Of a stretch of DNA of 64,000 bases, positions 12,001 through 18,000 are shown piece by piece; positions within the stretch are counted from its first letter, which is position 1, and each line of letters begins with the position of its first letter. Position numbers: made by a program. The stretch lies in the NCBI RefSeq assembly GCF_056746865.1, contig NZ_CM163382.1, one strand, 5' to 3'.

Positions 12001-15000
12001 TTACAACCAAAAACGGAACGGCCATTTTCCTTATTAGCCGAGAGCGCTACAAGAAGCCAGATGACATCGAAATATCATTGGCTTATCGAATCAATAATTA
12101 CACATTTATCGAGCGAGGATAATGATGGACCATGTACTGGCACATATAAAAACTAGAGCAAAAAAACGCATTTTCAAATTGGTTTCTGATCAATCTCTTT
12201 TTGATACCGTCACAATCGACTTAAATGCCTGTATTCCATACAATCCAGACCATAACCTTGACGAAGACTCATGGTTTAAAATTGAAGACTTTAGTCAAAA
12301 AGAGTTTTGTATTGAACTGCTAAAAAAAGACTATGATTCAAAAGACTACGATGACTTAACCAAAGATAACTTCGCCAAGATCGCCTACTTATTTGCAATT
12401 CAAGGTAATGATTTTTACTTTCAAAAAATCACTCCAAGCCTATTCGTAAAACGCAAAACGCTTGTTTTTGGTGAAGCCGCAGAAATTGAGAAGAGCCAAA
12501 CACGTTTAGTAATAAACGCCTTACCTGATGCAGTGTACTTCAAAGTGGCCGATACCTTGATATTCAAAAATCTGGCAACGATCTCGAGCATTTTTAAAGG
12601 TATCGATGAGTTGTACAAGGAAGCAACAAAAGAAGAAGTTGAGCAGTTTTTAGATGCACAGTTTATAGAGTTGGGTAATGACTACAACGTAGATAGCGTC
12701 TCAAAACCTAATAGAAAACGTATTGGCCTTGCTATGGCAACACTTGATGCGATGTCTGCTGACGATAAAGCTAACATGCTTGATTATATCGACGGTTACT
12801 GCGGTGAACAGAAGCTGAAATTCGATAAAGAAAATCAGAAGTTTGAAATATCTAATGACGATGAGTTGAAGTTACTGCTTTATGGCATTGAACAACGCTT
12901 CTATACGACCCCGTTTGGCAAAGAAAAAAGGCTCGCTAACTCTGTAACCGCTATGGATAAATAATAGCCCATTATCAGTAACATATGAAGGTTGATTCAA
13001 TGGCCGATAACATCCCACAAGCTCCTCAAGGTGAGTTTGTTCTTTTCACCAGTGCTGATGGTCAAACCCGCGTTGAGTGTCGTTTTGAGTCTGACACCTT
13101 GTGGCTTTCTCAGGCTGCAATGGCAGAGCTTTATCAAGTTAGCTCTCAAGCAATCACCCAACACGTAAAAGCTGTCTATTCTGAAGAAGAGCTTGAGCAA
13201 ATTTCAACTTGTAAGGATTACTTACAAGTTCAACTGGAAGGTGGCAGAGAAGTAAAGCGAAGCATTCGTCACTACAGTCTTCCGGTTATTCTTGCAGTAG
13301 GATACCGAGTTCGCTCAACACGTGGCACCCAGTTCCGCCAATGGGCAACCAGAATGTTGCAAGTGAACCGCCCCGGGTTTCCTGGAGAGTGTTTTATCTG
13401 TGAACTCAGGCTGCCAGATCATCGTTTCCGATGGAAGCATAATAAGCTTTTTCTGCTTCTGCCGGAGGAGTATGGCCCAGCCTTCCCAGCAATCGTCGAT
13501 TGTTATACCAGTCCACCCACGTTAGTGTGGCCAGTTCCACTTCTGCACGGTTTTTCCAGCTCTTACGGTGTATTACCTCCGCTTTGTAAAGACCATTGAT
13601 GCTCTCAGCCATCGCGTTGTCATACGAGTCGCCTGTACTCCCTGTTGATGCCAGTAATCCGGCTTCTTTTAGTCGCTCCGTATAGGCCAGTGACACATAC
13701 TGAGAGCCTTTATCGCTGTGATGGATGGTGCCAGACGGACGACGGGCCCACAACGCCTGCTCCAGCGCATCCAGCACGAATGTCGTTTCCATAGACGATG
13801 AGACCCGCCACCCCACGATGTATCCGGCAAACACATCAATGATAAACGCCACATAGACGAAGCCCTGCCATGTGCTGACGTAAGTAAAATCAGCCACCCA
13901 CAGCTGGTCAGGTCGTTCTGCCACGAACTGACGGTTTACGCGGTCGCCTGCGGCAACGGCTTTCCGGCTGATGGTCGTACGGACCTTTTTACCCCGGAGA
14001 ACACCGGCAAGTCCCATAACCGCCATGAGACGTGCCACTGTACATCTGGCCACCCTGATTCCTTCCCGTAACAACTGACGCCAGACTTTACGCACACCGT
14101 ACACCTGATGATTTTCATCGTATACGCGCTGTATCTCTCTCTTCAGCCAGTCGTCGTGCTGCGCACGGGCACTGCGTTTATCCGGATGATGTCGCTGTTG
14201 CTGACAATGGTAATACGTTGACGGGGCAATATGCAGTTCGCTGCATACCGGTCCGACCCCGTACTGCTCACGCAGCTTATCCAGCAGTGGCATCATTTTT
14301 TCCAGAGGCGGTCGAACTCCGCCTTCGCAAAATAAGCGGAAGCCTGGCGAAGGATATCGTTACTGCGGCGCAGTTCACGATTTTCACGTTCCAGCTCTTT
14401 CAGACGCTGACGTTCAGCGCTGGTGAGCCCACCATCACCGCCCCCGGTATCCCGCTCATGCTGGCGAACCCAGACACGCAGAGTCTCCGGCGTACAGCCA
14501 ATCTTTGGGGCAATGGAACAAATTGCCGCCCACTGTGAGTCATATTCATCCTGACTTTCCAGAACCATACGAATCGCCCGCTGACGGACTTCGGGGGAAA
14601 AACGAGTATTTTTAGTCATCCTGTTTACCTCTTTCTCAGGGAGTTTAGTCTCCAGGATTTCCGGGGCGGTTCAAAGAATACCTAATCAAAGGATTCGTCA
14701 TGGATGACGAGCGCCTGAAAAATCCGCCCATTGGCCATTCTGCTGTGCCAGATTACTTTGATGAAATGCTGGAACGCATTCGTGATATCCGAGCTAGTGA
14801 GCGTCGCGTTTATCTGCGAGTCAAAGAAATCTTTACCATGGCTGCTGATTACGAGCCATCTAACCAAGAGACCAACCGCTTCTTCCAAACCATTCAGAAT
14901 AAGCTGCATTATGCTTGTACGCATATGACGGCTGCTGAGCTTATCGCCAGCCGTGTGGATGCCAGTAAGCCGGATATGGGCTTAACCAGCTATAAAGGCG

Positions 15001-18000
15001 ATGAAGTGCGCAAGACAGACGTTACTGTTGCCAAGAACTATTTGCGTGAAGACGAAATCAAAGAGCTTAATCGCATCGTCAATATGTGGCTCGACTTTGC
15101 TGAAGACCAAGCACTGCGTCGCAAGCAGGTATTTTTACAGGACTGGGCCGATAAGCTTGACCAGTTCTTGAGTTTTAACGATAGAGATGTATTAAACGGT
15201 GCAGGAAAAATCTCCAAGAAAGACGCTGATGACAAAGCGAAATTGGAGTTTGACCGCTTTGCCCAGCAGCGCCGTCGTTTAAAAGAAGCCGAAGGCGCAC
15301 GGGCCAATATCGCAGCCCTCAAGGCCATACTAAAAAAAGATAAATAGCCGATATAGTACAGCCCTGATCTCTAATGAGTTGAGGGCTGTGTTGTAAGATC
15401 ATAACTATAAAGGATTATCCATCTTAAAATCGTCGATATCGCCTGTCATTTTGAATAGATTGGTGTCATTCCAACGGCACAGTTGTCTAACCCGCATTAG
15501 ATTTGAGTTGGCTCTGCGGATTATTGAGAAAGCATCTTCAACAGCAGTAATCACCGATTTTTCCCAATCTTGTGCTCGGGTAAAGGTGCTTTGTGAATAG
15601 CGATAATTGCCCTCACGGGGGAGGTAATGGCTGATCACCTGGTATTTGTCAGAATTCTTTTTAGGTTTAAACTCGTTGTAAACCCAGAAAATTTCGAGTT
15701 TTTTGTTTCTTTGCCTTACACGACAACCAAAATGACCTGGGTAGCCTTCAGAGTTTTTACCTCTATGTGCAACGTTGTTCAGCCAGAACAAGTCTGCAAT
15801 TTTTTGTGCTATGTAGAAGTAGCGGAGCTGTTCTATTTCGGTTGATTTATGGGTGTAGTGTAGATATTGCTCTGATATGGTTAAGGAAAAAGCATTGCGT
15901 CGTCTTGATTAACATTTGTGCTATTGACAATAAAGGTTTCCCAAATATTAATTTGTGTTTCTAGTCCTTTAAATGATTTTGAGAAGGCTTCTATGTACTC
16001 AGATTGCGGTTGATTTCCCCCATTTAGTGCTGCACCAAATGTAGCTATCTGTTGTTCTAAAAATGAATGATTTTTGGTCATTACATAATCCTCTGTGTGG
16101 TTGATACTGCGTATTTTCATGAAAGGAGATCACTCAATAACCCCCCTGTGTCAGCATAGTTGTCGCCTCAATTTTTTAAGGAGATAACAATGCCAGGACA
16201 ACCAATACCAAATGAGCTCAAAGAAAAAGGACTGATATGGCTTTTGCCACCATACTGTTGGTCACACCGTCAGATAGCCCGGAAGCTGAAGATCAGTGCC
16301 TCAGTTGTATCAAAATGGAGATGTGAGTTAGTGGAGCAAGGACTTTTACCTGAAAATGAAAAGATTACCTCCGTTGATGTTGAAGACTGGACACCGGAGC
16401 GTCGATTCTCAGTTGTTCTTGAGACGGCTACGCTGTCTGTCACGAACGGTGCAATAGTGGATCACTTTTCATCCGTCGTTGACACTGTCAGAAATGGAGC
16501 TTGCCGATTATTGCCGACGCATGGGATTGTTTGTTGAACAGGTTAAAGAATGGCGGGCTATCTCAATTCAGGCGCATGAAAAAAATTGACGGAAAATATT
16601 CGAACAGACAGGGCATTGCGTGACGCAAAAAATAAGTTACGAGAACTGGAGAAAGAGCTTAAGCGCAAAGATAAAGCTCTGGCGGAAGCTGCGGCCCTGC
16701 TTATATTAAGGGAAAAGTTCAATGCCCTCTGGGACAACAGCGAGGAAGACTGCCCCCTCTCCTGGAGCGGCATAAAATTATTTCTCTTGTCCGTGAGGCC
16801 GTCGCCAACGGCGCCCGGAAAGGTCAGGCTTGTAGGTGTATCGGTATTTCTATTCGGACACTTCAGCGCTGGACTAATGGCAACATCATCACCACGGACC
16901 GAAGATCCGATACTGTAAACAGCTCTCCCCGAAATAAGCTGTCAGAAGCGGAAAGATTGCGAATACTGGAGTTGTGCAACTCTCCAGAGTTTGCATCCTT
17001 GCCTCCAAATGTGATCGTACCAACTCTGGCAGACAGAGGTATTTATATTGCTTCTGAATCAAGTTTTTATCGTGTACTGAAATCAGCCAAGCAGTTGAAG
17101 AAACGATCCCGTGAATGCCAGTATAAACTGGCCTGATGTACTCAGGGCCGTTGCACCGAATCAAGTCTGGAGTTGGGACATCAGCTATTTGCCGTCCTGG
17201 GTCAGAGGCCAGCATTTTTACCTCTATATGATCGTCGATATTTACAGTCGCAAAATTATTGCTGCTGAGGTATTTGCCAGCGAATCTGGAAAACATGCAG
17301 CAGAACTACTCCAGCGTGCAGTATGGAATGAAAAATGTTCATCCAACAATCTGGTACTCCATTCTGATAACGGTGGTCCCATGCGCAGTGACACGTTGTT
17401 GGCGAAAATGTATGCGCTTGGTGTGCTAAGTTCTTATTCCCGGCCAAGAGTCAGCAATGATAATCCTTACTCAGAATCTTTGTTCCGGACTCTCAAATAT
17501 TGTCCCTGGTGGCCTGAGAACGGTTTTCGCACTATTGATGATGCCAGAGTATGGGTAAACCAGTTTTGTAAACTGGTACAACTTTGAACATAAGCACAGC
17601 GGGATCAAATACGTCACGCCAGCCGAGCGTCATCAAGGTAATGACATGAAAATACTGGCAGCCTGAAAAGCGGTATACCAGCTAGCTCGCGAGCAACATC
17701 CTGAACGTTGGGGCAAGTATCTACGTAACTGGAACTACATATCAGAAGTCTACCTGAATCCAGAAAAAGAGGCTGCATAACGTAATTTTATTACAAAAGG
17801 CGACAACTACCTTGAAAAACACCGCCAAATCATGATCGATTCGAATGCCAAACTGCGATCGATTCAGATGCCATTTTGCATGCTGCCAGAGCAATATTCC
17901 CCCTGATGGTTGTATCAGAGATGGTATGCCGGTACTTTGCGGGTTGTTCCTGTCAGGTTATCGTGCACCTCCACATTCGTTGTCACTACCGGCATTCCGT

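Follow-up and report, generated by a model that had tools for sequence, protein, structure and literature searches.

A RhuM-family gene split by an IS629/IS1203 insertion beside a Type I restriction-modification locus of Escherichia coli

Introduction

Two coding fragments lie on either side of an insertion sequence (IS) at positions 12985-15347 of a 64,000-nucleotide (nt) stretch of DNA (contig NZ_CM163382.1, assembly GCF_056746865.1; hereafter the window), and the locus raises the question of whether they belong to one gene of the RhuM family, and of what its interruption, next to an equally interrupted hsdR, says about the surrounding defence genes. The window is part of an Escherichia coli chromosome, its positions 41000-64000 (dsbD, aspA, groL, frdA) being 100% identical to many strains. 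A preliminary description, made from the sequence alone, had proposed a single rhuM gene knocked out by IS629, which can be restored in silico, and had called it notable that the same IS had struck hsdR. Here, we conclude with near certainty that 13000-15347 holds a single gene of the RhuM family, which a recent IS629/IS1203 insertion has inactivated; this degree of confidence covers the structural claim, namely one rhuM gene split by IS629, the functional inferences lying outside it. IS1203 is an isoform of IS629.

Results

The two fragments reconstitute one rhuM gene

The IS sits within a single RhuM-family gene and is bordered by a 3-bp target-site duplication (TSD), AAG. The parts of the interrupted gene are as follows.

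13000-13363, + strand: rhuM 5′ fragment, codons 1-121 and the first base of codon 122
13361-13363, no strand: left TSD copy AAG; the empty site of relatives has one AAG
13364-14673, − strand: IS629/IS1203 copy B, 1310 bp, antisense to rhuM, with AAG flanking both sides
14674-14676, no strand: right TSD copy AAG, located by sequence inspection and by script
14677-15347, + strand: rhuM 3′ fragment, the remainder of codon 122 through the stop

Joining 12985-13363 to 14677-15347, with the IS and one AAG removed, gives 1050 nt in frame with a sole, terminal stop, as had been proposed. The proposed length of about 348 amino acids (aa) is slightly off, since the product has 349 aa from the alternative upstream ATG at 12985 and 344 aa from the ATG at 13000. 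The latter, with AAGG 9 nt upstream, is the RefSeq start of WP_000774671.1, and the homologs likewise start at the equivalent position; 13000 is thus the likely true start. An ORF (open reading frame) called mechanically at 14700-15347 (215 aa) begins at an internal ATG of the 3′ fragment.

The joined 1050-nt DNA is an exact substring, at 100% nucleotide identity, of the complete chromosomes of E. coli 98232 and Iso00225, where WP_000774671.1 bears the annotation "virulence RhuM family protein" and a single AAG marks the empty site. The reconstructed protein is the exact sequence of WP_000774671.1 and has the length typical of the family (about 340 aa). Against PF13310 (Virulence_RhuM), the joined product scored 379.2 bits (E = 1.1e-113; gathering cut-off 33.7), in one colinear stretch that aligns residues 74-327 with model positions 1-250 of 252 and crosses the junction at residues 126/127. 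When the 344-aa protein was split just 3′ of the IS site, its two halves (residues 1-128 and 131-344) matched complementary parts of the model, 1-60 and 63-250. In an alignment of 50 sequences sharing 34-86% identity, the invariant W35 and N242, together with about 40 near-invariant positions, are all present in the reconstructed protein. Hence, the locus shares the full model and the conserved residues of the RhuM family, whose prototype is rhuM of Salmonella pathogenicity island 3 (SPI-3), and differs in being an IS-split pseudogene.

These results bear on two other accounts of the locus. One random join in three would be in frame a priori, so that an open frame could in principle have arisen from fragments of two different genes; however, the join is identical over its whole length to a single annotated gene in many genomes, and one Pfam match runs across the junction. 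Because the joined DNA is identical to intact alleles, a coincidental in-frame join is ruled out and we give this account no credence. The other account is that a repeat copy was misplaced during assembly, which is conceivable in a region with three near-identical 1.3-kb repeats within 10.3 kb and for an insertion that is absent from every other record searched. Against this stand the precise IS ends and the perfect 3-bp duplication of a target that is single-copy at empty sites, and the copy in hsdR is just as precise with a different TSD; misassembly would not create TSDs. We therefore regard an assembly artefact as very improbable.

The insertion interrupts the most conserved part of RhuM

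Copy B landed within codon 122 (Glu) of 344. It breaks the family's best-conserved block (GYRV..FRxWAT..L/EY..KGF, with the cut at the slash), at a site that an AlphaFold2 (AF2) model puts where the final helix of the N-terminal domain ends. The longest frames left are a 199-aa fusion, made of 121 native and 78 IS-encoded residues, and the 215-aa frame from the internal ATG. A promoter scan gave no sign that the 3′ fragment is expressed, with no promoter-like site on the + strand at 14600-14700, although the scan was itself uninformative, as its overall counts fell below the shuffled expectation. We infer that RhuM is non-functional in the source strain and that rhuM is a pseudogene.

The inserted element ends in imperfect terminal inverted repeats (TGAACCGCCCCGG...). 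On the − strand, it encodes orfA (14293-14619, 108 aa, HTH_Tnp_1) and orfB (13406-14296, 296 aa, HTH_21 and rve), which overlap by ATGA. The element shares 99.7-99.8% identity with those labelled "IS3-like element IS1203 family" in O157:H7 and further E. coli strains. IS629 is known to make TSDs of 3-4 bp and to be strongly biased to acquired DNA, where 62% of its copies lie (PMC3271280). The size, the orfA/orfB layout, the TSD, the identity and the location in acquired DNA are all those of insertional inactivation by IS629/IS1203 (IS3 family) elsewhere, and the mechanism is no different; only the targets are new, in that neither this rhuM allele nor this hsdR was seen interrupted in any other place.

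The intact allele is carried by other strains and the insertions look private

We searched a set of 5,426 complete E. coli genomes, of which 76 carry the 1050-nt rhuM sequence, always on the chromosome and always in one unbroken piece, with 75 of the 76 copies at least 99% identical. The exact 344-aa protein is also indexed in 5,632 blocks of a large assembly collection. The uninterrupted allele that the preliminary description had expected in related strains is thus found in every one of the 76 complete carriers, as well as in 10/10 further contexts.

The rhuM::IS junction was found neither in the complete genomes nor in PLSDB, the hsdR::IS junction was not found in the complete genomes, and no record exists of the exact 199-aa and 204-aa fusion products that the disrupted allele is predicted to encode. 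The 215-aa C-terminal fragment does occur, in 27 records that derive from contig ends or frameshifts. Eight such loci were inspected; seven have the empty site, and in the eighth the contig begins too near the junction to tell. Since neither junction occurs in the complete-genome set, both insertions look private to the source strain and recent.

An identical IS copy splits hsdR in the same block

The rhuM gene closes a compact series of genes on one strand, in the order relB-like, hsdM, hsdS, hsdR, kwaA-like, kwaB-like and rhuM, which is followed by mobI. Most genes of the block start within the stop of the preceding gene, and the gap before rhuM is 35 nt.

3754-5733, + strand: hsdM, intact
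5733-7019, + strand: hsdS, intact
7019-9704, + strand: hsdR 5′ fragment, 895 codons and 1 nt of 1078
9705-11014, − strand: IS629/IS1203 copy A in hsdR, TSD ATA (9702-9704 / 11015-11017)
11018-11568, + strand: hsdR 3′ fragment; the join has a single terminal stop
11568-12122, + strand: KwaA-like, 184 aa (PADLOC KwaA, 9e-16)
12122-12964, + strand: KwaB-like, 280 aa (PADLOC KwaB, 7e-14)
15405-15791, − strand: mobI(A/C)-type gene, 128 aa (PF19456, 9e-28), convergent with rhuM

Rejoined, hsdR measures 3237 nt and encodes 1078 aa, the same as the intact HsdR of the related loci L001-L012. It is split at codon 896 of 1078, 3.6 kb upstream of the rhuM insertion, and is truncated ahead of its C-terminal region. 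Loss of hsdR with retention of hsdM and hsdS is the classic restriction-minus, modification-plus (r-m+) outcome. As hsdR is truncated here while hsdM and hsdS are intact, an r-m+ phenotype is implied for the source strain. The antisense IS in hsdR is probably also polar, lowering transcription of the Kiwa-like pair and of rhuM.

Copies A and B are base-for-base identical (1310/1310), so that the claim of one IS splitting both hsdR and rhuM stands. To call this notable is generous, because IS629 accumulates in acquired DNA (PMC3271280) and relatives have IS629-type copies at no fewer than five other sites, mostly intergenic, within 5 kb downstream of rhuM.

The kwaA-like and kwaB-like genes form a divergent Kiwa-like pair that is translationally coupled to hsdR; it falls below the NCBIfam cut-off, and the Pfam KwaA match on record is weak. 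A gene annotated as a RelB/DinJ-family antitoxin (165 aa) lies upstream of hsdM at about 3190-3687 of the window (3519-4016 in L001) and has no obvious toxin partner; in both the Vibrionaceae and the Dickeya forms of the block, a RelB/DinJ-like gene occupies the same position. The mobI gene, intact in the window, is truncated or split by IS1203-type insertions in strain 98232 (L001) and in L003.

An older IS copy marks the probable loss of a canonical Kiwa pair

A third copy of the element lies downstream, so that the three copies, all in the same orientation, span 10.3 kb.

18679-19987, − strand: IS629 copy C, older, 1309 bp, without a TSD here

Relative to copies A and B, copy C has two substituted bases and lacks 1 bp where orfA and orfB overlap. 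The same site is occupied in 31 complete genomes and copy C is therefore older; being defective, it is an unlikely donor of the other two. In L003, L011 and L012, copy C is flanked by a GTT duplication, and in L012 the 3.36 kb to its right include a canonical KwaA/KwaB pair. The window (from 19988) and L005 have a different right flank and have lost the duplication, and the 3.36-kb Kiwa-bearing segment of L012 is absent from the whole 64-kb window. This altered flank, which is common to L005 and about 31 complete genomes, points to a deletion or rearrangement next to the IS.

The block is shared with mobilisable islands of Vibrionaceae

The boundary between the conserved backbone and a mosaic island is a tRNA gene.

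40671-40746, − strand: tRNA-Phe(GAA)

Everything upstream of it is mosaic and includes sugar genes of the mel/raffinose type, IS elements and the defence block; a composition profile of the window showed no sharp island boundary.

The order of the block is identical in all ten further E. coli places. The nearest relatives of this RhuM (94-97%) come from Vibrio and Plesiomonas, and an 82% homolog lies in the same relB-hsdMSR-kwaAB-like-rhuM-mobI block adjoining mioC-gidA, a neighbourhood that is the trmE site of IncC-mobilisable islands of the MGIVchHai6 type. E. coli and the trmE islands of Vibrionaceae keep the Kiwa-like pair in the same place, which suggests a composite operon of Type I restriction-modification (R-M), Kiwa-like and RhuM genes. 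Across MGIVchHai6-like islands, rhuM usually adjoins mobI_M, and R-M and BREX systems are carried as cargo (Rivard et al. 2020, PMC7449626). The locus thus shares with the MGIVchHai6 family, found in Vibrionaceae at trmE, the relB-like/hsdMSR/kwaAB-like/rhuM/mobI block, at 82-97% RhuM identity. It differs in being a fragment only, placed in a tRNA-Phe island bounded by IS1, IS2 and IS629, and in the 128-aa MobI(A/C)-type mobI gene that converges on rhuM. Integrase, xis and DUF927 modules, with integration at trmE/yicC/dusA, mark islands of this family and occur in the Vibrio loci; for E. coli L001 and L002, no DUF927, xis or integrase module is annotated within 12 kb on either side of the block.

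Other settings vary the neighbours of rhuM. In Vibrio, a 95% homolog adjoins mobI but has another Type I system (order R-M-S) as its neighbour and no Kiwa-like genes, DUF927 and xis lying upstream, and in Dickeya an 85% homolog directly follows hsdMSR without mobI. The link of RhuM to Type I R-M thus goes beyond a single setting, given the E. coli, Vibrionaceae and Dickeya contexts. The association asserted in the preliminary description therefore holds here, and it does so in the literature, where rhuM is enriched near Type I R-M with an odds ratio of 14.4 (PMC9881135) and a role as a toxin domain of R-M/PrrC loci has been predicted for RhuM (PMC3710099). Some Dickeya dadantii genomes (L025 and L026) have hsdMSR deleted down to an HsdM_N remnant with rhuM intact, an outcome opposite to that in the window.

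Fold and candidate function of intact RhuM

Among the hidden Markov models (HMMs) of PADLOC for PDC-S05, the reconstructed protein matched PDLC04852 best (8.4e-167, residues 6-347). PDC-S05 is a single-gene, RhuM-domain candidate defence system, and one such protein cut the plating of T7 and T5 about 1000-fold and also reduced that of T4, in E. coli B as host (bioRxiv 10.1101/2024.09.26.614923). The member tested, a distant one, came from a cold-seep metagenome and is not this allele, which here belongs to a longer R-M/Kiwa-like operon and is inactivated. Host-interaction phenotypes are attributed to a Salmonella SPI-3 rhuM mutant in work cited in PMC7449626.

The AF2 model (predicted local distance difference test, pLDDT, 87.9) shows a winged-helix-like N-terminal domain and an all-helical C-terminal domain. 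Neither a single-sequence nor a profile search returned a homolog of solved structure. By fold, DdrC of Deinococcus radiodurans (PDB 7qvb, 8u0g, 8u1j) was the top match in two programs, through a resemblance of the N-terminal domain and with low TM-scores; it has no sequence similarity to RhuM and acts in a different biological context. This model-based likeness would be a lead on DNA binding rather than a sign of family membership.

Three other affiliations were rejected. Kinship with DinD/Bro-N, prompted by a "dinD+RhuM" architecture (PMC9881135), had an hhalign probability of 0.14 against E. coli DinD, and DinD matches Bro-N where RhuM does not. Fic/DOC kinship, prompted by fusions (PMC3710099), had neither a domain nor a fold signal, and a phage origin found no PHROG match.

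Discussion

IS629/IS1203 inserted into codon 122 of rhuM in antisense orientation and duplicated AAG. In the course of events that we propose, insertions A and B would be independent copy-out/paste-in events, each with its own TSD. The donor would have been a canonical IS629 and not the defective local copy C. The hsdR insertion would be polar on the genes downstream, and the strain would be left r-m+ with a non-functional RhuM.

As for what was lost, the reading that we favour, with somewhat better than even confidence, is that intact RhuM would act alone as an anti-phage or "conflict" effector and bind DNA with the winged-helix-like domain that the model predicts. Alternatively, rhuM could be a backbone or accessory gene of a mobilisable island, linked to mobI/oriT and serving, for example, establishment, mobilisation or virulence, rather than a partner of the R-M system, in which case its loss would say nothing on defence. 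The Vibrio homolog that adjoins mobI beside another Type I system and lacks Kiwa-like neighbours fits such a gene, as do the usual adjacency to mobI_M across the island family and the host-interaction phenotypes cited for the Salmonella mutant. However, the Dickeya homolog follows hsdMSR without mobI and is retained in genomes that have lost hsdMSR, the family as a whole shows enrichment near R-M (PMC9881135, PMC3710099), a member alone protects against phages (10.1101/2024.09.26.614923), and RhuM has neither a PHROG match nor a relaxosome-like domain; we consider an island gene of this kind unlikely, without dismissing it. An improbable extension of the DdrC likeness would make RhuM a sensor or binder of DNA ends or nicks and the last layer of a three-part operon, the serial IS629 hits in hsdR and rhuM and the IS-adjacent loss of the canonical Kiwa recording selection in this lineage to disarm it. 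The three parts would be Type I restriction, a Kiwa-like membrane/DNA module and RhuM, which may act, for instance, on DNA broken by HsdR.

A related question is whether the double hit and the older IS-adjacent loss of Kiwa, taken together, reflect neutral decay or selection for the disarming of a defence operon that is costly or self-toxic, so that, for example, a plasmid or prophage could enter. In favour of selection, hsdR and rhuM of the one operon are interrupted by identical copies that look private while hsdM and hsdS are spared, and the canonical Kiwa of relatives is missing here beside an IS without TSD. On the other hand, IS629 strongly favours acquired DNA in any case, IS629-type copies occur in relatives at the other, mostly intergenic sites within 5 kb, and the hsdR hit may already silence the downstream genes, so that the rhuM hit would be neutral. 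We think selection of this kind doubtful.

In summary, this is a known kind of event, an ordinary insertional knock-out, in a known gene family, and the disrupted copy cannot help answer what RhuM does biochemically. Positions 13000-15347 should be annotated as one rhuM pseudogene with an IS in it instead of as two hypothetical ORFs, and r-m+ is the proper reading of the Type I system next to it. Neither the pattern of erosion nor the shared block changes current understanding, and both are mildly interesting: the first for three defence modules eroded by IS elements in a single lineage, the second for a relB-like/hsdMSR/Kiwa-like/rhuM/mobI block common to E. coli and the mobilisable islands of Vibrionaceae. 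Its two private insertions, and an older deletion next to an IS, make the locus a compact and clear case of a defence island being worn down by IS629.

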